Assembly (NCBI GenBank): GCA_044892525.1
Contig: CM097886.1
Span: 130,944,001 to 131,008,000, forward strand
Reading direction: 5' to 3'
Length of the DNA: 64,000 nucleotides
From: Schmidtea polychroa
Lineage: Eukaryota
Part shown: piece after piece, positions 49,356-64,000 of the stretch
How the letters are laid out: the number at the start of each line of letters is the position of its first letter
Position numbering within the stretch: the stretch's first letter is position 1
The notes under the pieces: generated by a model
Told to the model about the DNA's origin: nothing
The model's database searches: none
Seen by the model: the letters and a program-made list of their open reading frames with translations, nothing else
Program-made: the position numbers and the translations under genes

Positions 49356-49590
49356 TTATTGATTCGATAATTGTGATTGCTCTCGAATTGTGATTTTGAG
49401 ATTTCGAATGATACATTGGTCCTCAACCCGGGATTTTTCTATTGTTTCAATTCGCTCATTCAGTTTATTTACATGTTCAGACCTGAACCAGATGACCTCG
49501 ATTTCCCTCCATTTTTGGACAAGCGCTTCGGCACTACTTTCAGCTTGTCGGGATGCTTTTGTTGGGCTAAAACGTGGAGTTTCGAAAAAC
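49356..49590 (-). pseudogene. Paralog fragment of the 52441-53205 ORF (frame not in the ORF track)
   Basis: WFRSEHVNKLNERIETIEKSRVEDQCIIRNLKITIREQSQ aligns without gaps to WFSPPQMKEEKSKILRLEHCRDSLLEESRCQRLTIKAQSE (10/40 identical plus conservative pairs). Confidence 0.55.
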
Positions 49591-52440
49591 TGGAGCGAAT
49601 AGAAAAGTAATCCTTGAAAAATAAATGAAATAAGATAAAAATATAAGGTACCATAGAAATCTCACTAGTAAATAGGAAGGAACAATAAAATAACAATAAA
49701 AGAATAAGAATAAGTAAACAAACTAAATAAAATCCAATAAACCCCTTGAGATTTAGAAATAAAGCGATTTAGGACCCAGCAGATGAAATAGAATAAAATA
49801 AGTAAAAAAGTGACAACAAATAAAAGAGAAATTTAAGAAATAAATAAAAAATAAAACTATCTTTAAGTCTAATTAAAACAAAAAAATTATATTACAATAA
49901 AGTAGCAATAAACCTACAAGAAAAATAGGAGGAAAATAATAAAAATAGGAAAATAAATAAAATAATAATAAGAAATAAGTTAAGTCATTAAAATCTAATA
50001 TATTATAATAAAAAACAGAAAAATAATAATAAATAGTAAAAATACAAGCAGGTAGCGTCCTGATTGGACGAAAAATACTATATATGTAACGTGAAAAATT
50101 AGACGACAACCACTTTTAATTTTTCACGATTACAGGTAAAATTTTAGAAAAACTTAACAACCACTTTTAATTTTTCACGATTACAGAGCATAGACTTCAG
50201 ATATTTCACCGAATTCAGGACTAGAATCGCAAACGCTAATTCGAGAGATTTTCAGAATTTACCTTCAATTAATTTGAAACCAGTTTAAACTCGATTTCGT
50301 TCCAGTTTTTGAAACTATCGGTAGGCCGATTGATTTATATGTATTAGTTAATTTATTAATGATGAAAGACAAAACTCATTTCGTAAAATAAATTTATTGG
50401 AATACAAATGGCCTTTTCTTCATGGTGCCGGCGACTGTACCATCTGAGAGCTCCCAGTATGATGTGGATGAGTTGGAAATGTACCACGGCAGAGAACACA
50501 ACAGTGGGAAGGTTGGCCCTCATAAGAAATCCCGAAGATGCTGAAAATGAGAATGTGATATTTGCAGAGAAGGATATTTATCATGTGAGAAATCTACCAA
50601 GGTTATGATGAGGCTGCGGTTGTGTGGAATGAATAACATCATACTTGGAGTCCAAATGATAGGGTCGCCGGGTGAGCTTTATTGATCCATTTATTTTTAC
50701 TGATTCATTTGCTACTATTTGATTCATTCATTCATTTTATTATTCATAAATTGTATATTAAATGTTGATTTTGTGAAAGACGAGTCAAACGGTCCCTCAC
50801 GACGATGCAAGAACGGCGGCAGAGATGATTGCCTTCTTGGGTGGGTCATGAGGGGTGAGGAGACTCCGCAGGTGGAATACTGTTGGAAGTAGAGTTTCTC
50901 ACATCGAGCGCGATCTGATAGAGGATCTTTCGTTTTCTTTTATGAAGTCCCGCTGAAGTTCCAGAATAAATAATGTAAATTTCCAAAGTCGGAGACAATT
51001 TTTCGGATTGAGATCAGTAGTTCGTTGTTGTTAGGAAAATTTGCTTTTCCGTCGAATATGGAAGGGTGTCTGAGTAGGGATGGGCGATGAATTGTTAGAG
51101 TTTTCACGGGAAGATCTGCTAAGCCCTTAAAAATTGAACCCCGAGAGGTACATTGCAGGGACATTAGCGAGTAAACCCATTCATTTACTAATTTAGACTT
51201 TAGCTTGACATTGAATATCTGGTAAAGTTTGGTTTGACGTTGACAGCGGCTCGTCTAAAAGGGGAAAGTAAACAAATTTTTGATAAGGAAATAAATCACT
51301 TGCCGTGAGTCCGAGTGAAGATATCAATAGCGATAGGAGAATCATTAGTTGCCCATGGCCAGATAAATTTCCGACGGGGAAAATCAGCTGATAATTTGAT
51401 AAAGTCATCGAACGAGTTGATTTAGAAGGCGGCAGTCGATCGAGTGTATTGAGTGGTCTTATCGTGAGTCGACCTAATATCGAAAATCCAGAAAATAGAG
51501 TAATTTTGATCTACTGAATCCGCAAGTCACCCACACAATCGAATTTCTTGAGTTTTGGACACACCAACTGAGTACCCGTCTCAACTAGAGCATCTCTCTA
51601 CAACTCTACCTCTATTAATCGCTCGCCCACATGTACACATGCATCACACTCAGATTAGGTCACAGTGCACATGTGGATATCATCATTACCTAATCATAGG
51701 GAGAGAGTCGTACACTTGTAACTGCTGGTAGACCACTGGATTGCGTCAGAGAACATGGCGATGCGACGAGAAATTTTTTTTGCCAGTGTGCAAGCCGCTA
51801 GTTAAATGCACCAACATGCATCGTAACGAACCCGTCGATAGTTGATGGTATAGATAGACAATCAAATGAACACATAACTGCGCCCGATTTAAGCGTCACT
51901 ATGACGATGTTTATGACGTTAAATTTGAAATAACTAATTTGTAATCCATGATAAAAATTTTAAGCGAGGGTATTATGATTTTCTTACAAACCCGAGGGGT
52001 CCACATACAAGACGGGGTGTCCCGGTAATTGCCGATTTTCCGTTCATCATATAGCACGCGTAGAATCTAACGACGTGGCAGCAAAATGAGTAAAATATAA
52101 TTGTTAAAATGTAATAACGATAATTAAGATAATAGCGTTCATAGTAACGAAGCAACAGTCATGCAGTAGTTAATAATAGTCAAACCCGTAAAGTAAACCT
52201 AAAAGCTAGCATAATGAATTGTTTTCATGAATCCCGTTTTCTTCTCATAAAGTAGTAATGATTACATGGGTTAGTTTGGATGTTTGAGATTGTATGAAAG
52301 TGGTTAATTGCCGACGGGGTAGATTGGTAGGCCACTCTTGGATAACTTGGTCGGGGAAATCTTACATTTCGTTTTCCGAAAATATGAATAATACCCCAGT
52401 AAATTTTTAATTTAAAAATAACAATTTCTCAACAATTTAG

Positions 52441-53205
52441 ATGAATACCTCAACCAGTTCCGGGAAAACCCTCAGACCTTGCTTTTCCTGTGCTGATAAA
52501 AATGCCGATATCGCACAGCTCCACTTGTACATCGGGGAATTGAAGAAGAGAATTGACCTCTATGAGGGAACGTGGTTCTCCCCACCACAAATGAAGGAGG
52601 AGAAGAGCAAGATTTTGCGTTTGGAGCACTGCCGTGACAGTCTCCTAGAAGAAAGCAGGTGCCAGAGGCTAACCATAAAGGCCCAATCAGAGGCACTGCA
52701 CAAGGTGTATTCCGAATCAGAACTAGCGAAGCGAGTTCGCGAGTACCCGATACAAGATGGGACTAACGTGTTCCCAATACACCACAAATTAGCTGAAACC
52801 TCATCAATATCCAGTTGTAAAGGGCATGGCCCACAAATGCCGCCAATTCCCGCCCCAGTTCTTTCGGGCGATCGACCTATGGCTGGCGGTTCATCGGACC
52901 CCATCTTGGCTCCAGTACTCGTGCCACACCTCCTTCAGTCCCCAGCAGAAGCTGCACTCCCCCATCGAAAGCGTAAGCGGCTGACGCGTTCTGAAAAAAA
53001 TCAGAAGCGTAGAAATGCCATGGCCGCGCTCGAAGCATCGTTATCTGTGGCCAAAGCAACTATCAAGGAAATTACAGTTACCCATTCCATTCCTACAAAG
53101 GAAGTATTCCGGGTAGTTCCGGCCGGCAGTATCAAATTCCTCGAAGATCGCCGGTTGCCCGTTGACATCGACGAGATGCTCGCAGAAGGAGAAGCATTCT
53201 CGTAG
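52441..53205 (+). CDS. Element-associated 254-aa protein: CxxC, coiled coil, Pro-rich segment, basic NLS-like cluster; function unknown
   Basis: Intact GC-rich ORF in an AT-rich context with CFSC, a heptad-rich N-terminal half and HRKRKRLTRSEKNQKRR. A paralog at 49.36-49.59 kb supports coding. Confidence 0.6.
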   Translation: MNTSTSSGKTLRPCFSCADKNADIAQLHLYIGELKKRIDLYEGTWFSPPQMKEEKSKILRLEHCRDSLLEESRCQRLTIKAQSEALHKVYSESELAKRVREYPIQDGTNVFPIHHKLAETSSISSCKGHGPQMPPIPAPVLSGDRPMAGGSSDPILAPVLVPHLLQSPAEAALPHRKRKRLTRSEKNQKRRNAMAALEASLSVAKATIKEITVTHSIPTKEVFRVVPAGSIKFLEDRRLPVDIDEMLAEGEAFS

Positions 53206-53488
53206 CCAATTCTCTCTCGGGTCTCGATTCCCCTGCTATTACGAACGAACTTGAAGAAGTGACGTTATCTCGTGACTAATCTTTAATGTTTCGCATTTGT
53301 TTAAACAATGCTGAATGTAATTTGATGTTCCGTTCTAATATAACTGTTCGATTTTCTTTGATTGTGTAAATTGTATGTATGATTTGCTACGGTTGAATTG
53401 CATGAGAGAAGGATCACGAAAATATAGTAGAAACTTAAATGTCTTACCTTTTGGACCAGGGTCGGACTGAATGATGCGTAAAGAATGG

Positions 53489-53601
53489 GTAAGACCTTCT
53501 ATGGCACCGTAGAACCCGAACCGAGAAAGGGTTAGGAGTAGTCCTAAGGCAGGGGCTCACCTGCTAACTCTTTCCAACCCGTGTGAGCAGTACCAACGTG
53601 G
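53489..53601 (+). other. Conserved ~115-nt block (copy A) downstream of the 254-aa ORF
   Basis: Homologous to 1465-1581 and 48869-48983; stops occur in all frames nearby. Confidence 0.7.
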
Positions 53602-54217
53602 AACATCACCACGGGCTCATATGTGGGAATATGCGAATGATCATTTGGAGTGCGTGAGGGAATAATCTGAGTAGAATAATGACACCTGATGTGTATGATA
53701 ATCATGCCTATATATTTTCTTTCCCCCACATACGCCAACATGATTTTTGGGGGCTCAGCCGGGATGAATTCGATTTGTTGATTACCTATTATTGTGTTAT
53801 GATGTGTTAGATTAACAATATAATTAATTATGATTAAAAATGGAATCGGGACTGAAACGAATCGATATCGTAATACAATAGAATGATGATACGAACTGAA
53901 AATAGAGCCTGTATGAATAAAGATGAACCTAAATGAGTATGAATGTATATGATAGAGTATGATGAGAGAAGGAAACGGGAATTAGTTACTTTGTTTAATT
54001 TTAATTTATTAAATTAAAAAGGGGAGACAAAAGAAAGTAATGACAATAAAATTAAAAGATTAAAGTCAAAAATACGACGGGGATTGTTAAAAAGACTAAA
54101 TAAAATACGAAAGCTAGAAACAATAACAAATAAAAGAGAAACGAATATTAAATACAACGTAATAATATTATTGCTAATACTAGTAAGAACAAATAATAAC
54201 AACACATTCATTTAGAT

Positions 54218-54697
54218 ATGTCAGACGCTAGACAACATCTACAACAGCTAAGCCGGTTCGTCGAAATAGAAAATGATTCAATAAAAACATTAAGGGAAAA
54301 ACTGAAACAAATAGAACTGCTAGAACAACAAAGCCACAACGCACCGCTGATATCCAAACAAAACTTTCTAACCGACAGATTAGGATCAACAAATACCGAT
54401 ACCGACTTGTCGATTCATTACCAATGGTTTCAGCAACGTCTCGACGACCCAGCGCTGAACATCGAATATGTGAGGATACGCGAACGAGTCAAAACTCTGT
54501 CTCAGCGGATACGAACATCAATAGTAGAGAAAGCAGCGGCCTTGAGAACTTGTAACATTTGCAAGATGCGACCTGTCAAAATTCTGATTCTACCTTGTGG
54601 GCACCTTAGCCATTGTGACGAATGCGCCGCCAGTTTAATCCGGTGTTCTATGTGCACATGTGTAATAAAAGAGAAGCACATAATCTACTTCAGTTAG
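54218..54697 (+). CDS. Coiled coil plus C-terminal IAP-type RING (C3HC4_3-like) protein, no BIR; putative E3 ligase
   Basis: CNICKMRPVKILILPCGHLSHCDECAASLIRCSMCTCVIKEKHIIYFS* matches the spacing and terminal F-x-S/aromatic end of XIAP/cIAP RINGs. Confidence 0.85.
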   Translation: MSDARQHLQQLSRFVEIENDSIKTLREKLKQIELLEQQSHNAPLISKQNFLTDRLGSTNTDTDLSIHYQWFQQRLDDPALNIEYVRIRERVKTLSQRIRTSIVEKAAALRTCNICKMRPVKILILPCGHLSHCDECAASLIRCSMCTCVIKEKHIIYFS

Positions 54698-55280
54698 GTA
54701 CGTGATCGTCGCTCGGTGAGAGAAATTGGATGGTTGAACAATTAAACTAAAATATTTTAATTTTTTTTGATTTGATTCATTAATATTTTAATAATGGTAT
54801 CATATATCATATGTAGCATGGACTGAATAATCAATAAATCATTTTTGTGTGTTTATTTCATTTTGCGAAGCTATAATTTGATCTGTTGTATCATAATTTT
54901 CACCATGAAGAAAGGGTATTTTAAAATTTAAATCGAGTACATAAAGTGGAGCTAGTCCCAACATAAGATTAAAGGGGGAATAAACCGAGCCACCTTCGGG
55001 AGGTACGATAATTGAAAAACCGTTCGGGAGGGGATAACCGATCACCCCGAGTAAGAGATGTAAGGCGAGGTACCATCGCGAATATTGAAAAGTTTCTGCG
55101 GTATGGCTGATCACCATACCAATGCAGAAATGGATCAATGCGATCGTTTTGCGTTTTAAGCAAGGGGGGAAAGGGGAAACCTTCCAAAGCGGTACAGATT
55201 AAGTCGACAAATAAAAGTAAAAATAGGAAGATGACAGTATAGAATAAAGACAAAAAGGAACGGAAGCATGCAGAGTTTAG

Positions 55281-55800
55281 AGATATTAAGGCCGAGCTGT
55301 TGAAAAGTCCAGCCGGTCAGGAAAAATTAAAACTGAGCTGTGAAAAGTCCAGCCAGTCGGAGATATTAAGGCCGAGCTGTTGAAAAGTCCAGCCGGTCAG
55401 GAAAAATTAAAACTGAGCTGTGAAAAGTCCAGCCAGTCGGAGATATTAAGGCCGAGCTGTTGAAAAGTCCAGCCGGTCAGGAAAAATTAAAACTGAGCTG
55501 TGAAAAGTCCAGCCAGTCGGAGATATTAAGGCCGAGCTGTTGAAAAGTCCAGCCGGTCAGGAAAAATTAAAACTGAGCTGTGAAAAGTCCAGCCAGTCGG
55601 AGATATTAAGGCCGAGCTGTTGAAAAGTCCAGCCGGTCAGGAAAAATTAAAACTGAGCTGTGAAAAGTCCAGCCAGTTCGGAGATGAAGAAGATTGAGCT
55701 GTCGAATAGTGCCAGCCAGTCGTAAGATCGAGTTGTTGAATAGTCCAACCGGTCAGGAGAAGAAGATTGAGCTGTTGAAAAGTGCCAGCCAGTCGTAAAG
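55281..55800 (+). repeat. 80-bp tandem array (5 near-perfect units) built from 40-bp subunits, followed by degenerate units
   Basis: Units start at 55281, 55361, 55441, 55521 and 55601. Subunit core is GAGCTGT(T)GAAAAGTCCAGCCRGTCRG. Confidence 0.95.
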
Positions 55801-56463: not shown

Positions 56464-59400
56464 TTGATTCGTGTAAGCAAAGGCAACACGATATCATATT
56501 TTCATTGTAGACATCCATCCAACCAAGTCAATTCAGAACCAGCTCAAGAGGAATCCAGAGAATATACAAACAACCCAGGAAAAGCAATTCAGAACCCGCA
56601 CAAAGGAAGACAATATCAAAACCGAACTCGACCAATTCAGCAGACGCTAACCGTAGAAAATCCACGTGAAAAGACAGAAAAGAGTAAAAGGAAAATCACG
56701 GATAAACCCAACCTTAGATCTTCAAGTAAGCCAGGAGACGTATTATTTTCAGGAGACGAATTAGATCAACTCAAAAGAGGACGATCATTTAGGCAGCAGA
56801 GAGGAATATCACAAGGAGCAAAAAGACCCCACAAAACACCGATATACGATCAAGAAAACCCCACAGCCGGACATACGCCCAGCCGATCTAGAAGTAGAGA
56901 AAGTCTATCCGATATAACAAACAACCTAACCGGGTCAACAGAAGAATTATCCGTCCATAGCTTAGCTACATCGCTGGAAAATTTAAAAGAAATAATAGAG
57001 TTTCAAGAACCAATTAAGATGAATGTGGTAAAAACTGACGAGTATAAGGAAAAATTTAGAGGCGAACCATTCAACGGGAATGCGAACAAGTTGGCAACGT
57101 TCATAACCAACTTTGAAGTCTATATCGATGTGTGTGGATGGACACCCGAAGCAATTAGTAAACGAATGCCTCTGTTTTTGTGCGATAGCGCACTCGAAGT
57201 ATATCTGGAAGCAAAAGAAAGAAATACGAAATTAGACAATTGGGAAAACATCAAAACATTTTTGAGAAAAACATTCGGAGCCAGCAAACCAATAAATCAA
57301 GCGTTAGGTGAACTGGCAAGTAGAAAACAAAGAGCAAACGAGTCAATTACGTTATACGCAAGTGAATTGCGAAGATTGGCAAAGAAGGCCATGAACGGAA
57401 ACTTGCCGGAGGAAAATTTAATTGGTTACTTCATAGAAGGACTACGCCGAGAAGAGGTAAGGGCCTCGGTGGGATGTCAAATGTGTAAAACACTAGAAGA
57501 AGCCATAGATTGGGCCACAAGATGCGAACTACACCTCCCAGCACAAATGAACGTCATGCAAGAGGAGGGAAGAATCGCAACAGCAACGGTGAAAACGGAA
57601 AATGGGGATAACAATAATCATGAACCCAAGATGAATCAGTTTATACCAGGAGCACATCAAATTTTCAAACCACCACAAGGACGATCAAACGGGAATAACA
57701 GTGAACGCAACAACTCGAACAATGGGAACAACTTTAATAATCGACGAAATATGAACGATAACAAACAATGCCGAACATGCGGTAAACCAGGACATTGGGA
57801 TAGAGATTGTTACCGAAACGCAAATTGCAATAGGTGTGGACGACGAGGACACACGGAAAATATATGCCAATCAAGAGGATGTTTTAACTGCGGGCAACTA
57901 GGTCATATCTCAAGAGACTGTCGAGAAAGGAGCCAACAGCAACGACCACCACAGCGAAATAATAACTATGCACCAAATCCGCAACGACAAAGTAATCCTA
58001 GTGAGGGAAAGCAAATGAATGTGATGCAAGAAATTTCACAAATGAAGCAGATGATGCAACAAATGATGAGACCGAGACAAGAGCAAGTACCACAACCAAC
58101 CCAGAATATACGCATGATGAGAAGCACCGAGAATCTTAACAATTATGAAGTGCAACAACATGCACAAGAATGGCAAAGACTACAAGCTGAAGAAGAAAGG
58201 ATAAAAAGAGAGCGAATTCAGCAGCGACAAGAACAACCACTACGAATAAATATGATGAGGATGGTAAAGGAGATAAAGGAGCAATATTGTTACAATTACG
58301 GGAAAAATCCAAGAGTTGTACCTATGAGCGAACCAGAGAAACCGAAAGAAACAATTACAGCAGCAAAAAAGGAAAATTCAACAACACCACTAAAAGGAAA
58401 TCAGAGAATTCAGAAAATATTTTGGAAAAAGATAAAAGATAAAATCGAAAGAGAAAAGGAGCAAACAAAAACAGAAGCAGAAGCAGAAAATAACGAAAAT
58501 GAAAAACAGATTAATCATCTAAAGCATAATATGATACGAGAATTAGACTCAGAGGAGCTAACGATACTCGAGAACAACAAGTTAAAGAAAGTACCAAGAA
58601 TGAGAAATTTACGAATTAATATGATGAGGACAACAAAGAAGGTGTTGTCAACAGATGACGATGAGGATTATGTGAGTAGCCTTGGTGGAGAAATGTTACA
58701 GTTAAATGAAAATATCGACCAACTAAGAGAAAAGATCGGAGCAGATGAAGATGAAAGAGAAAGCGACGTGACAAGCGAAAGCGACGTGACAAGCGAAAGC
58801 GAAGACGAGAATATCGAAATGAAATTGAGAAAAGAAAGAGAAGAAGCGATAAAACAAGTAAAGGAAATACTTCCAGTGGTGGTAAGAAACCAGGAATTCA
58901 TTGACATCATACCATACCGACGCTTCATACAAAAGATAATGAAACTAGAAAGAAACGAAAAAGACCTAATACCAAACGAGGAAAAAGTGATAATAAAGAA
59001 GTATATGGAAAAAATGAAACAAGCGGAGACAACACGCTATGTAATAAAAATCGGAACGAGTAAAGGACTCGAGAGAATATGGATAAAAAATGCAGTCACA
59101 GACGACCTTTTCGATTGGATAAGAGAACATTTGGGCAGCTCGAGAAAGAAAGAATATCTGTATCAATATCAAGGAGAACAAATCAAACCAGACATGCACC
59201 TAATAGATGCATTGATCTGGCCAGGAGAAACTCAAATATTGAAATTGTATAAAGAGAAACAACCAGCAAATATTCACGAATGGGCTAAAGACGCCAAGGC
59301 CGAGTACGATTTTAGCATCAAGCTGAAGCTGGAACAAATAAAACAATGCACCTTGCGACGAAATCTAGATAAATTAATCAAACAAATTCAAGAACAAGTC

Positions 59401-62400
59401 GAAGATAACTGGGATTTACTCATAGCAAGACGAACTCCAGACATGCATGAGCTAATGAGCCGATTACGAGATACAGAATTGCTCAGGATGAGCGATTGGA
59501 GAACCATAAATTTGATCCACAAATATGGCAGGTTGAAAGAAACGCAACCGCAGAAATTAGAAATAACCATATGGTTACCAAACGAGGAGAAACGACGAAT
59601 AAAGATGAGTAATCAGAGTACGGTAGATGACTTAGTAACCAAGATAAACCAAGAGATAACGGAAAAAGTACGAAGCGAGAGTAGCGACGGGATGATAGAT
59701 GACGTAGTCATGATGTACGATAAAATAATATTACGGGCCGAAGACGACACCTCGCTAAGCGAAATGGGAATGTGGGATAATCATCAAATCATCAGAATAT
59801 TGCCCATGGACGAATTCCGAACAAGAGATATAACATACCAGAAAGAAATACGAGACAGGATGAAAACGCTATATCAAAAATCAGTAGAGATAATTGAAAT
59901 TCATCAACAGTGGTTAAAAGAAAAAGAGCTTCAAGGAAAAATAAAGAAACTAAGTGTGAGATCCTGCAGACGAACCCCATGGGAAAGGACGTGGAATGCG
60001 GAAAACAAAGAATGGAAAATCAGGAAAGGGATTTTCGTGGAAACAGACATTGGTGAGATAGAAAGTGAATCAGAAGAAGAGGAAGATGAACCTCCAAAAT
60101 ACGAAGAGGACGAAATAGAATCGACATCGGACGACGAAAGCGAAACGGATGTTACATCAGAAAGTGAACCGGAAACCAGACATATTCACGCGATGAGAAA
60201 GAAAGAGCGCGAATATGCCGATATGGATAGCGAAGAAGCGATGGAAGCTCGAGAACGAGAAGAGAAGGAAAGATATAAACAATTAGGTGATATCTTAGCA
60301 ACGGGAACAAAAAATCAAAAACGTCAAGTAATAGCATTGGCTAACATCATCCTAAAGACATCAGAGAATATCCACAATCTAAGAGAAATGGCGAAAGCGA
60401 TTGAGGAATACAGACAATATAACGAATGGTACCCAGAACAGCTAGAACAAATTATTAGGAAATGGAGAAACCAAGAATGGGCACAAGATACCCAGGAAAG
60501 GTATCGTATCCGAGTCAAGTATCCCGACAAAAGCATTGAGGATACAGAAGTACATCCAACAACAAAGATCAGAGAGTTAAAAAAGAAATTAGCATACGAA
60601 ACTCCGTTTCACCTACAACTATTCGGAAAATCGTTGGATGATAATGCAGATGTCGGAATAACACCCATGAGATTGGGGGAGATCAATGTATTGACAATGG
60701 CAGAAACATTGGGAAAACCGATTAAAAGGAAGAACAAATCCAGTAAACCTACGAAAGGTAGCTTGAGTACACCAAGCCCTAACAAAGTGGCAAGTAAAAC
60801 GAATGAAACCGAGGAAATCGAGGAAATTATATTGGAAGACAGCGATGAAGGAGCTGGAGAAAGATCACCAATTCTGGTAAGATGGCCGACGGGAGCCGAA
60901 ATATGGACAACAAGCCAACCGTCAACTAGCTATCAGCAGCCAAATAAGCTGAGTATCGAGGAGATTATCGATAATACAACAGAAACCGAAACCGACGAAC
61001 AATTCCAACGACAGAAAGGACCAACGAAAGCAACACCAGAAGGTCAAACGGACAAAATAATAGACGAATGGAACGAATGGCTAAGAAATAACGATAGTTC
61101 ATTGCCAAGAACGGATAACGAGAGAAACCCGAATTATGAAAATACAAGGGAAGCCGGAACAATGATGGAAAAACGGGCAAAAGGGAGACCCAAGAAGCAA
61201 GGAGAAAAACCGGAATTTAAAACTAGAGAACAACTGAAACAAGAACAAGGACAAGTCAGATTAGAGAAACTGGATAAAATAGTGTGGGATCTAAAAGAGG
61301 CCCAGCCAACTATCGAAAGAGGCGAAAAATGGATACGAGAGCTAGTGAAAGATATGCTAATAATAACGAACCCACAATTGCGACGGTTATGGCAACGAAA
61401 AGTAGCAAGCGTAGACGCCAGACAACTATGGAATACAATATCCGGAATAATTCCGAAATTAATCAAAGAGAAGACAAAAACCACTAAAACCGATTGGGAA
61501 GAGACAAGAAGAATAATTGAACAATTAACTTTAAACGCAAACGACGACGAACATCATTTAGTAGTATTAACGTATCTAATGTACAATTTGATGGGATTAG
61601 CAGCAAGGAAAATACCTAACAAACAATTCGCAAATCATGTAGAAATGACCGTCACAATCATTGAAAATACAATCGAACCACATATCATCCGCGCCGGTGG
61701 GTGGAAAAGACTCATACAAGCGCCACGAAAAAACGAGCAAGAGAGATCAATGCAAATTCGGTTGAAGAAGTTACTACATGAGCTAGAATGGGAATTGCCA
61801 TCGAAAGACCCAGCCAGCAGAAAAGCGTCGATTAATTCACTAATGATGACCATGATGATATGGATGCTCTGCACCAGTGGAGCCGCGGGATTTACTATTT
61901 ACGACTGTGACAATTCGATAATAGGAGAAAGATACTCCCTGAGAGATATAGAGGAATGTAGACAGGCGTCTCCGAATAAATTAGATATAGTAAAGAAGAA
62001 AGTCTCCTATCACGTATACCAAGAATCAGATTTCATTAGAACGCAAGCTAGAGAATGCGTAGTATCAAAGAAAGTGTTGGCATATTACTGTGGACAATAC
62101 TCATATTCAACCCTTATATTACCGGGATTAGATAAAGAAATAGTACCTATACAACGGGAAGACTGTAAAGAGCTTTTTAGAACCGGAGCAATGAGAATCA
62201 GGGATGGAGTAACAATACACGGACAAAGCGGAATGATCAAGACGGAAAGTATCTATGTCGCTGGACGAGTAAAATCAACTGATGGATCATGTAACGGAGG
62301 CACATATACGATCAGAGGAGAGGTGATATCGGGAGTAGTAGTAATTGAGTCCTACACAGTGGAGTTGAAGGAATACGAAGCACAATTCGACGCGAACAAC

Positions 62401-64000
62401 TATCAAATGAAAACCAACCCAGCATGCAGAGCTACGGAAAACGTGTGTAGAACGGGAATTTTGACTATAATATATGAAGCTAACACCCAAAAATGCCGAC
62501 TCCAATTGTTAAAAAGTGCTCTATTCAATGAAGTAAAAGGAGAAATTTACGAAAACGAGGATGACGATGAAGAGAATGGAAACGTAAGGATGCGAAATGG
62601 GAAACCAGTTCCGCCATCCCCCAAAGAAAAGAGACTCACAACCCAAAAAACACCAACGGCATTAATTACAGATGACCCAGATATCGGCATGAGATTCATT
62701 AGAGAAAAAGAGACCACCAAATGTGACAGCATAGTATACCGGACGAACTACGCAGGTATCTACATGTCCAGGCAAGTAATAGACCGAGCAGTGGGAAAGG
62801 TAGCAACAGAGGACGTAAAATTGTACCTGTACGCCAATAACAAAATGGACTTTTTATTTCACCGAGGACAAACGACAATGCAAAAAGTGTATTACGATCT
62901 TATACAAAATGACTGTTCATTGAATAAAGAGATACTAAAAACAAAATTAGCCATCGCAATAACACACCCAGATAACACAATGCCATCACTCCCGTTACCG
63001 GATGGACATTTTGGTAGAATGGTGGGAGAGGTAATGTATACATATGCATGTACCAAGACATTTGCGCGACTGCCAAGAAAGCCCACAATTCCACCAGGGA
63101 AATGTGCAAACGAGTTAGAAATTAGTTACAAAGGGCGAAACAGATTCGTTCAACCCGTCACTCGAATAATGAACCCAATTGGATTTTACCCGAACACCTT
63201 TAACTGTTCAAATGCATACGGACCGTTATATGAAAAACCCGATGGGAAATGGATAATGTTACCGGTAAAAACCGAAGTACAAGAACCTAAAAAGTTTGGA
63301 CTAATAGAACTCGCAACAGAACAAGATTTCAAACCAATTGATGTGTCAAAAGCAGGTATGTACTCACCGGAGGATTTAGAAACGGCACGATTAAACGTAT
63401 TATTCCCAGCAAGACGGGAATCCATTCTATCGAATATGGTTACCATAACTGGGGGAACGAATTTCCAGTCAGGCCCCAATTACGAACTATTATTGTCACC
63501 TGATCATTTTCAACAAGCCACGTCAAACATGATGAAAGCAATGTGGGGAAGATTTCTAGTGTTCGGTCAAATGATGGCAGGAATATTGGGAATCATCTTA
63601 ATTATTCAGATCGTCAGAGTAATATTAACTCAAATGTTAGCGTGTTTTGATATCTATAAGAGAGAAAAGAAGGTAAATTGGAAATTGATAGTAGGCTTTC
63701 TACCATTTTTGGCGAAAACAATGGTGTTGCACGGTCATTCTAAAGACATACACAGAATAAAACGATTGATCAAAATACTGACAAAAATAAAAGGAACTGA
63801 CGAGGAAGTCGGTAGACGATTTCGGAAAACGATGTATGATGAAGCAACAAGGACGCAACTGAAAAAGAACAAACCAAAATTCTTAGACAGATTTAGGAAT
63901 CGATCAAACAGCAGCGATAGTGATGATGACGACAACGGGAATGACAAATACCCATATCCAAGTAGAAACCCGAATGAAAAGCCAATAGAAACAGCACCAT
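56464..64000 (+). CDS. Giant retroelement polyprotein (open at the window end): Gag - accessory domains - chuvirus-like Env
   Basis: Frame 1 read codon by codon has no stop from 56464 to 63999 (2512 codons); first in-frame ATG is 57019. Gag capsid-like region ~57055-57530; three CX2CX4HX4C at 57769-57921; UBL-like ~59035-59250, ~59554-59810 and ~60499-60705; Bcl-2-like ~61260-61725; signal peptide ~61831-61890; glycoprotein from FTIYDCD at 61891; TM ~63553-63650. Confidence 0.9.
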   Translation, partial: MIRVSKGNTISYFHCRHPSNQVNSEPAQEESREYTNNPGKAIQNPHKGRQYQNRTRPIQQTLTVENPREKTEKSKRKITDKPNLRSSSKPGDVLFSGDELDQLKRGRSFRQQRGISQGAKRPHKTPIYDQENPTAGHTPSRSRSRESLSDITNNLTGSTEELSVHSLATSLENLKEIIEFQEPIKMNVVKTDEYKEKFRGEPFNGNANKLATFITNFEVYIDVCGWTPEAISKRMPLFLCDSALEVYLEAKERNTKLDNWENIKTFLRKTFGASKPINQALGELASRKQRANESITLYASELRRLAKKAMNGNLPEENLIGYFIEGLRREEVRASVGCQMCKTLEEAIDWATRCELHLPAQMNVMQEEGRIATATVKTENGDNNNHEPKMNQFIPGAHQIFKPPQGRSNGNNSERNNSNNGNNFNNRRNMNDNKQCRTCGKPGHWDRDCYRNANCNRCGRRGHTENICQSRGCFNCGQLGHISRDCRERSQQQRPPQRNNNYAPNPQRQSNPSEGKQMNVMQEISQMKQMMQQMMRPRQEQVPQPTQNIRMMRSTENLNNYEVQQHAQEWQRLQAEEERIKRERIQQRQEQPLRINMMRMVKEIKEQYCYNYGKNPRVVPMSEPEKPKETITAAKKENSTTPLKGNQRIQKIFWKKIKDKIEREKEQTKTEAEAENNENEKQINHLKHNMIRELDSEELTILENNKLKKVPRMRNLRINMMRTTKKVLSTDDDEDYVSSLGGEMLQLNENIDQLREKIGADEDERESDVTSESDVTSESEDENIEMKLRKEREEAIKQVKEILPVVVRNQEFIDIIPYRRFIQKIMKLERNEKDLIPNEEKVIIKKYMEKMKQAETTRYVIKIGTSKGLERIWIKNAVTDDLFDWIREHLGSSRKKEYLYQYQGEQIKPDMHLIDALIWPGETQILKLYKEKQPANIHEWAKDAKAEYDFSIKLKLEQIKQCTLRRNLDKLIKQIQEQVEDNWDLLIARRTPDMHELMSRLRDTELLRMSDWRTINLIHKYGRLKETQPQKLEITIWLPNEEKRRIKMSNQSTVDDLVTKINQEITEKVRSESSDGMIDDVVMMYDKIILRAEDDTSLSEMGMWDNHQIIRILPMDEFRTRDITYQKEIRDRMKTLYQKSVEIIEIHQQWLKEKELQGKIKKLSVRSCRRTPWERTWNAENKEWKIRKGIFVETDIGEIESESEEEEDEPPKYEEDEIESTSDDESETDVTSESEPETRHIHAMRKKEREYADMDSEEAMEAREREEKERYKQLGDILATGTKNQKRQVIALANIILKTSENIHNLREMAKAIEEYRQYNEWYPEQLEQIIRKWRNQEWAQDTQERYRIRVKYPDKSIEDTEVHPTTKIRELKKKLAYETPFHLQLFGKSLDDNADVGITPMRLGEINVLTMAETLGKPIKRKNKSSKPTKGSLSTPSPNKVASKTNETEEIEEIILEDSDEGAGERSPILVRWPTGAEIWTTSQPSTSYQQPNKLSIEEIIDNTTETETDEQFQRQKGPTKATPEGQTDKIIDEWNEWLRNNDSSLPRTDNERNPNYENTREAGTMMEKRAKGRPKKQGEKPEFKTREQLKQEQGQVRLEKLDKIVWDLKEAQPTIERGEKWIRELVKDMLIITNPQLRRLWQRKVASVDARQLWNTISGIIPKLIKEKTKTTKTDWEETRRIIEQLTLNANDDEHHLVVLTYLMYNLMGLAARKIPNKQFANHVEMTVTIIENTIEPHIIRAGGWKRLIQAPRKNEQERSMQIRLKKLLHELEWELPSKDPASRKASINSLMMTMMIWMLCTSGAAGFTIYDCDNSIIGERYSLRDIEECRQASPNKLDIVKKKVSYHVYQESDFIRTQARECVVSKKVLAYYCGQYSYSTLILPGLDKEIVPIQREDCKELFRTGAMRIRDGVTIHGQSGMIKTESIYVAGRVKSTDGSCNGGTYTIRGEVISGVVVIESYTVELKEYEAQFDANNYQMKTNPACRATENVCRTGILTIIYEANTQKCRLQLLKSALFNEVKGEIYENEDDDEENGNVRMRNGKPVPPSPKEKRLTTQKTPTALITDDPDIGMRFIREKETTKCDSIVYRTNYAGIYMSRQVIDRAVGKVATEDVKLYLYANNKMDFLFHRGQTTMQKVYYDLIQNDCSLNKEILKTKLAIAITHPDNTMPSLPLPDGHFGRMVGEVMYTYACTKTFARLPRKPTIPPGKCANELEISYKGRNRFVQPVTRIMNPIGFYPNTFNCSNAYGPLYEKPDGKWIMLPVKTEVQEPKKFGLIELATEQDFKPIDVSKAGMYSPEDLETARLNVLFPARRESILSNMVTITGGTNFQSGPNYELLLSPDHFQQATSNMMKAMWGRFLVFGQMMAGILGIILIIQIVRVILTQMLACFDIYKREKKVNWKLIVGFLPFLAKTMVLHGHSKDIHRIKRLIKILTKIKGTDEEVGRRFRKTMYDEATRTQLKKNKPKFLDRFRNRSNSSDSDDDDNGNDKYPYPSRNPNEKPIETAP

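Follow-up and report, generated by a model that had tools for sequence, protein, structure and literature searches.

The window analysed here, a stretch of 64,000 nucleotides, carries towards its end a gene for a glycoprotein of viral type (Env) downstream of a retroelement Gag, and the question raised by this locus is to what this gene belongs and what its product does. In an earlier note it had been read as the complete Env of a Gypsy-type Gag element, independently captured from an RNA virus. We propose, at a rough probability of 0.8, that Env belongs to a Burro-type Ty3/Gypsy element, young, multi-copy and 30.6 kb long, in which it lies in frame between Gag and Pol, and that its product, a predicted class III fusion protein, likely coats particles for entry into new cells.

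Structure, carrier and copies of the element

When the neighbouring genome beyond the window was read, Env was found within an element of 30,601 bp from LTR to LTR (Table 1). The polyprotein is encoded by a single frame that spans 4,817 codons from stop to stop without an internal stop, in the order Gag, ubiquitin-like and Bcl-2-like spacers, Env, protease (PR), RT (reverse transcriptase), RNase H (RH), integrase (IN), ankyrin repeats, and a second module consisting of a signal peptide (SP), an ectodomain and a transmembrane helix (TM). The Pfam matches that follow that of Env (PF24664) were RVP, RVT_1, RT_RNaseH, Integrase_H2C2, rve and Ank, with PR, RT, RNase H and IN all encoded past the window end in the same frame as Env. 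The glycoprotein of the earlier note was found intact, and its frame continues past Env into Pol. The three canonical CCHC knuckles previously reported for Gag were confirmed (CX2CX4HX4C, at 57769, 57826 and 57880). The matches to the ubiquitin-like units (the third to ubiquitin, E 0.013; the second to Ubiquitin_4, E 0.18; the first none) and to the Bcl-2-like domain were all below the Pfam cut-offs; the Bcl-2-like domain was also visible in the L047 family of the same genome, and reached E 0.001 in the relative P0005.

Table 1. Features of the element. Extended coordinates continue the numbering of the window past its end.
Feature	Coordinates	Strand	Remarks
5' LTR	49560..53740	+	4,181 bp, TG...CA, 4-bp target-site duplication
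254-codon ORF within LTR	52441..53205	+	Present twice per element; without Pfam match
Primer-binding site	53748..53765	+	18/18 complementary to tRNA-Pro(TGG) 3' end with CCA added
Accessory ORF, C-terminal RING finger	54200..54697	+	zf-C3HC4_3, E 3e-8
Tandem array in leader	55280..55759	.	80-bp unit
Polyprotein frame, in-window part	56464..64000	+	First Met 57019; ends at extended coordinate 70914
Gag	57019..57960	+	Retrotrans_gag E 7e-12; Ty3_capsid E 5.5e-5 (below cut-off); three CCHC knuckles
Ubiquitin-like units, up to three	59029..60720	+	Weak matches only
Bcl-2-like domain	61330..61740	+	Weak, E 0.019
Internal signal-peptide-like segment	61831..61890	+	By hydropathy; hydrophobic stretch before Env start in 12/12 aligned polyprotein Envs
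Env ectodomain, predicted class III (gB/chuvirus-like)	61891..63570	+	560 aa including membrane-proximal helix; mean pLDDT of model 89
Variable loop with KEKR at its end	62545..62640	+	pLDDT 62-67; KEKR at 62623-62634
Transmembrane helix	63571..63636	+	Strongest hydrophobic segment of polyprotein, KD 2.5
Second hydrophobic segment, weaker	63673..63726	+	Aligned also in chuvirus G and BEL-linked Env
Second module: signal-peptide-like segment, ~250 aa, TM	extended 69916-70773 (L011:6916-7773)		Very end of polyprotein, after integrase
TRAF-like accessory ORF, complete	extended 71484-72920 (L011:8484-9920)		RING, zf-TRAF, MATH E 2e-25
3' LTR	extended 75980-80160 (past window end)		4,181 bp, identical to 5' LTR

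By profile and PDB matches, the carrier is placed as Ty3/Gypsy-like, not BEL/Pao. The best PDB match of RT-RNase H was the Ty3 RT (E 2e-90), with caulimovirus-type enzymes next (1e-58), and the domain order PR-RT-RH-IN with an H2C2/rve integrase (Pfam) is as in Ty3/Gypsy (Metaviridae). The Ty3/Gypsy hallmarks of TG...CA LTRs, a target-site duplication (TSD) of 4-6 bp and a tRNA primer-binding site (PBS) were all present, the LTRs and TSD in 7/7 copies. The markers of BEL/Pao are Peptidase_A17, DUF1759 and DUF5641; no BEL/Pao marker domain was found in the polyprotein in Pfam scans, and the knuckles are canonical and not variant. The earlier assignment to a Gypsy-type carrier was upheld by the Ty3 RT match and by this lack of BEL/Pao markers.

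Seven copies, 30,419-30,746 bp in length, were followed end to end. All seven had TG...CA LTRs, 0-1 base apart, and a 4-bp TSD, and the polyprotein frame was whole in six (the window copy and five of the six others). A 23-mer of the Env start occurred 82 times in the genome with at most one mismatch, and the LTR start had 95 exact occurrences, mostly paired; the element is therefore present in at least 82 copies, at dispersed sites. As the LTRs are identical and 57 of the 150 copies scored (from 383 candidates in a protein search) lie in frames of at least 4,700 codons by hand count, the family is young. In one young copy (L022-L024, G000:C3, ~68.70-68.72 Mb), Env was intact and the frame was broken in the RT-RNase H region, leaving two frames of 3,172 and 1,669 codons. 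Of four contig sets aligned to the element, three of which were only presumed to be RNA, X1 covered 30/30 bins; such contigs carry neither strand nor level and hence are mute on expression and splicing; no GT-AG joint isolating Env was listed in the alignments of these contigs.

The PBS lies 7 nt downstream of the 5' LTR and its target is a tRNA-Pro(TGG) of the same genome. The usual distance of a PBS from the LTR is 0-3 nt, and the offset of 7 nt was present in 7/7 copies. Genes for tRNA-Pro(TGG) were seen in tandem, repeating every 475 bp (L061-L065, G000:C1:130.90 Mb onward), and the tRNA-Pro 3'-end pattern had 2,164 matches genome-wide. An identical 5-mer stands directly 3' of the 5' LTR and directly 5' of the 3' LTR. 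No polypurine tract adjoins the 3' LTR, the 25 nt before it not being purine-rich in 7/7 copies. In all seven copies the polyprotein frame is also open for 185 codons 5' of the first methionine (56464-57018), where a spliced leader or a non-AUG start may be at work. The TRAF-like ORF is followed by three ORFs (347, 234 and 217 codons) that lack a significant Pfam match, and these four ORFs were present in 7/7 copies. In the ORFs scanned with Pfam, the cargo seen consisted of MATH and two RINGs, and no BIR domain was found.

Predicted fold of Env and selection on it

The glycoprotein (61831-63726) matched Pfam PF24664, Monjiviricetes_fusion, with an E-value of 5.5e-74 (250 bits, cut-off 27). 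The internal signal peptide that had been placed before FTIYDCD was borne out by hydropathy, and this motif, at 61891, is the predicted start of mature Env. The cysteine-bearing motifs of the earlier note were likewise in place, in an ectodomain of 560 aa (and not ~570 aa) with 14 cysteines and one N-glycosylation sequon. Eleven of the 14 cysteines (C23, 56, 67, 92, 134, 202, 278, 342, 387, 405 and 439) showed at least 90% conservation across an alignment of 124 rows. The AlphaFold2 model of Env built on this alignment (pLDDT 89, pTM 0.67) contained a long central helix (311-358). When the model was compared with the PDB by Foldseek, the best match was HSV-1 gB (E 4.7e-13) and herpes gB was found in 33/33 of the rows listed, with TM-scores to solved gB of only ~0.4; among viral models, the best match was the G of a chu-like virus (E 1e-37, TM up to 0.70). 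Identity in the structural alignments was ~20% to chuvirus G and 11% to gB, and a search of the PDB with the ectodomain sequence gave no match (best E 1.1). Judged by its modelled structure, Env is a predicted class III fusion protein of the gB/chuvirus G type, and the fold proposed in the earlier note withstood this comparison.

The topology of Env was derived from hydropathy and alignment. Both the TM and the second hydrophobic segment described previously are present, but the second is probably not a TM: this assignment was rejected on account of its low hydrophobicity and because a second crossing would place Pol in the ER lumen. As Pol must be cytosolic, the segment probably lies along the membrane as a helix of the cytoplasmic tail. 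The KEKR sequence, for which a role as maturation site had been suggested, was rejected as a conserved furin site, being present in only 1 of 12 aligned polyprotein Envs. The furin consensus is R-X-K/R-R, which KEKR does not fit, and the loop that it ends varies, was modelled with low confidence and is lacking in the two named chuvirus G proteins. Cleavage at KEKR might still occur in the present family alone.

Selection was assessed in a young set of 26 copies, taken out of the 40 best DNA matches, and in an older set of 15 copies chosen for long frames; three copies were shared, giving 38 distinct copies overall. Env had neither a stop nor a frameshift in 26/26 young copies, an intactness that is overstated because copies were picked as best matches or for long frames. 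Among the variants of these 26 copies, 6 were non-synonymous and 121 synonymous in Env (pN/pS ~0.014), compared with 29 and 144 in PR-RT-RH, and with 154 and 273 in the spacer. Within the subfamily Env was more constrained than RT (Fisher p 0.0016), but this is not general, because the older copies reverse the order: compared with these 15 copies, Env had a dN/dS of 0.034, RT-RNase H one of 0.007 and the C-terminal module one of 0.13. Purifying selection on Env is strong, with a dN/dS of ~0.01-0.03. In one copy (L108, of the set L104-L118), the synonymous distance to the window copy was 0.14 in Env, 0.44 in integrase and 0.57 in the module core; such unevenness between domains of one copy suggests recombination between subfamilies.

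The selection on Env could partly reflect a folding need of the Pol-carrying precursor. In an alternative reading, Env would be a conserved membrane anchor or passenger that tethers the Gag-Pol precursor and must fold within it, and the element would move only inside cells. We consider this reading improbable. It is favoured by the sharing of one frame by Env and Pol, because selection on Pol alone then removes stops and frameshifts from Env, by the lack of a conserved cleavage motif, and by the fact that the available text of the two reports on comparable elements (PMC6431247 and PMC13524379) holds no particle or infection data. A mere anchor, however, needs no constraint tighter than that on the spacer, the ankyrin repeats and the second membrane module, as is seen in Env, where a 560-aa ectodomain with a whole class III fold and its conserved cysteines has been kept at the dN/dS values given above. 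No in-frame copy with Env deleted was present among the 38 distinct copies, all of which were chosen by Env or frame quality.

If Env serves entry into new cells, as we prefer, the single frame suggests how the parts might be sorted. Gag and the ubiquitin-like/Bcl-2-like spacer would be synthesised in the cytosol; the ectodomain would then be directed into the ER by the internal signal peptide, and signal peptidase would free its N-terminus there. Transfer would be stopped by the TM of Env, returning protease, RT and IN to the cytosol, where they would stay tethered to the Env tail until the protease cuts, with the second hydrophobic segment lying on the membrane and not across it. The element protease would cut Gag and Pol free beside Env trimers, at the same membrane. 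Reverse transcription would be primed by tRNA-Pro, and the RING, TRAF and Bcl-2-like cargo may counter immunity or cell death in the host. The potentially infectious element of the earlier note stands in so far as Env is intact and conserved, infectivity itself being a prediction from sequence.

A module of signal peptide and TM after integrase was also present in family L094 (L094:2403-3560) and in P0002, P0006 and P0013, and a broken third family (L101:4034-5098) had a signal peptide after integrase without an in-frame TM. No sequence similarity of this second module was detectable between most families, and a profile comparison between families gave no match (probability 0.1). The model of the module had a pLDDT of 42 and no Foldseek match at E 0.001. 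An FN3 domain, suggested by a motif that visual inspection picked out in 5 of 6 sequences, was not supported, with no match in Pfam or the PDB. Burro-type elements might be functional viruses with an envelope and a pair of entry proteins cut from one polyprotein, in which the class III fusogen before Pol would be joined by a faster-evolving type I membrane protein after integrase, acting as attachment protein or trigger. This proposal, modelled on gD and gH/gL, which serve herpes gB, is tentative and we hold it to be rather doubtful; the second module is a concrete candidate for the partner that a gB-type Env would lack.

Relationships and origin of Env

Word-based homolog searches, at near and longer lengths, gave no match to Env at E 1e-5; this blank marks a limit of sensitivity, because a full HMMER search with Env found 968 relatives at E 0.001. 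Among the matches listed, the closest relatives were long polyproteins (29-47% identity), compared with 22-29% for stand-alone proteins of ~650 aa. For the Env tree, 109 near-full-coverage sequences of the 150 listed matches were combined with the present Env, L047 and P0070, giving 112 rows. These trees carry no root, and for most rows no host is named. Thirteen polyprotein Envs formed one group with a support of 99, and the same group was recovered with a support of 94 in a 32-row IQ-TREE subset; 8 of 11 polyprotein rows carried protease or RT after Env, and 3, in which the stored protein lacked Pol, were assigned by the length of their N-terminal part. Names were sought for thirty proteins, giving two clusters named as chuviruses, two insect genomic proteins and one mislabelled MAG protein. 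P0006 (HBK71150.1), a Gag-Env-Pol polyprotein deposited as a Flavobacteriaceae MAG hypothetical protein, is likely animal contamination of the MAG bin.

AU tests, for which the companion rows were picked after the tree was seen, rejected three groupings of Env: with the G of Tacheng tick virus 4 (p 3e-5), with the Yichun mivirus cluster (p 4e-28), and with P0070, the BEL-linked Env, together with its neighbours (p 2e-40). The last result agrees with the separation from BEL-linked Envs expected in the earlier note; P0070 was called BEL-linked by DUF5641 alone and is at most a putative Anakin Env. Identities of RT and of Env were correlated (rho 0.67) over 21 pairs of 7 elements, which are not independent pairs, and the RT and Env trees of these 7 elements had the deepest split in common and differed in their inner branching. 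The trees place Env in an old clade of polyprotein Envs, apart from two named chuviruses and one BEL-linked Env. As Env groups with other Gag-Env-Pol polyproteins, a fresh capture is not indicated, and the association of Env with Pol appears to be old and inherited, not newly acquired from a known chuvirus. An ancestor of the polyprotein Env clade may anciently have captured it from an RNA virus, or transfer may have run the other way.

A second Gag-Env-Pol family of the same genome (L031-L060, L092-L099) was shorter, at ~17.5 kb with 1,060-bp LTRs and 3,334 codons, and dominated the PF24664 matches of the genome (2,581 candidates, 68 scored). The layout of this L047 family is that of the present element, and the two Envs are 36% identical. 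By eye, only 4 of 251 printed Env residues differed between the L047 family and Smed_errantivirus_2 (~98% identity), which suggests that the host is a dugesiid planarian. If the host is not S. mediterranea, this near-identity raises a question of horizontal transfer.

These relationships bear on the independent capture of a chuvirus glycoprotein by a Gypsy lineage that the earlier note had put forward, taken as a recent event. It is favoured by the chu-like G proteins that head the structural matches to viral models, by the Pfam family, Monjiviricetes_fusion, and by a carrier that is not BEL/Pao. However, the closest sequences are polyprotein Envs and not stand-alone proteins, both named chuvirus groupings were rejected by the AU tests, and a second family with the same layout is present in the same genome. 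An in-frame Env had moreover been reported for Burro in 2019, and gB-type GAG-ENV-POL gypsy elements have been published, in the available text of Chary and Hayashi 2026 (PMC13524379), from flatworms, nematodes and bryozoans. As a recent event the capture is largely refuted, and we regard it as very unlikely. Solo chuvirus-like glycoproteins do occur in arthropod genomes (PMC7642597; Dezordi 2023, as far as their available text goes), but a host-domesticated viral glycoprotein (EVE) merely adjoining a Gag is refuted and carries practically no weight here, as Env shares a frame with Gag and Pol inside an element flanked by LTRs, which is found at no fewer than 82 dispersed sites.

Comparison with known systems

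The comparisons in this section refer to the available text of the papers cited. Planarians harbour giant LTR retrotransposons of a gypsy-like kind, Burro and GYPSM1 (Arkhipova and Yushenova 2019, PMC6431247, citing Grohme 2018 and Jurka 2007), the Burro type having a single ORF of ~4,800-5,100 aa. BURRO1 is reported to rise in animals after piwi knockdown (Li 2021, PMC8532177). Burro1 exceeds 30 kb and has one ORF of 4,873 aa with Retrotrans_gag, three CCHC knuckles, and ubiquitin-like and BCL2 units; its Env lies in frame between BCL2 and protease and matches mononegavirus fusion glycoproteins, and the Burro cargo includes ankyrin repeats, MATH/TRAF, RING and BIR (PMC6431247). The present element is alike in its length of >30 kb with LTRs, its ORF of ~4,800 aa, its order Gag-Ubl-BCL2-Env-Pol-ankyrin and its MATH/TRAF and RING cargo. 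It differs in that MATH/TRAF is found in a separate downstream ORF with RING and zf-TRAF, whereas it is within ORF1 in Burro1 and upstream in the Dugesia tigrina element, and in the lack of BIR in its scanned ORFs. By the published description the present family is Burro-type, and it may be one of the named families Burro-2, -3 or -4, or already be named in Grohme 2018. The available text of PMC6431247 does not mention, for Burro, a second SP/TM module, a tRNA-Pro PBS or selection on Env. Literature searches gave no account either of the second module or of how selection acts on Env in Burro, which Grohme 2018, its supplement, Repbase entries or figure panels may cover.

Six S. mediterranea elements, Smed_errantivirus_1-6, are described in PMC13524379, where an ancient association of Env and Pol is argued and cell entry by gB-type errantiviruses is stated to be unknown, as herpes gB needs partner proteins. 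They share with the present family a Ty3/gypsy Pol, a gB-type Env, the order GAG-ENV-POL, a multi-copy state and a flatworm host. The present family matches no member of this set and is closest to Smed_errantivirus_5, with 106 of the 187 first aligned residues identical (57%, hand count). No PBS is listed for these elements in the available text, and the LTR search of that paper left out spacings >14 kb.

Anakin comprises BEL/Pao elements with a chuvirus-like glycoprotein (Dezordi 2020, PMC7642597), and is alike in being an LTR element that uses the same Pfam glycoprotein family as Env; here, in contrast, the carrier is Ty3/Gypsy and Env lies upstream of Pol in one frame. With the G proteins of Chuviridae/Jingchuvirales and herpesvirus gB, the present Env shares the predicted fold, the cysteine pattern, a membrane-proximal helix, a TM and a juxtamembrane hydrophobic segment, but it has an extra loop, which the two named chuvirus G proteins lack, and is made within a retroelement polyprotein. 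Troyka elements have CG...CG termini and a 3-bp TSD (Kojima 2025), whereas the termini here are TG...CA and the TSD is 4 bp.

The placing of Env between Gag and Pol is therefore a design already known from Burro, to which the present analysis adds the evidence for selection on Env, the primer site and the second module. These additions make the question of infectivity testable, and a young family with Env under purifying selection is a good natural subject for the study of movement between cells, for example into planarian stem cells.
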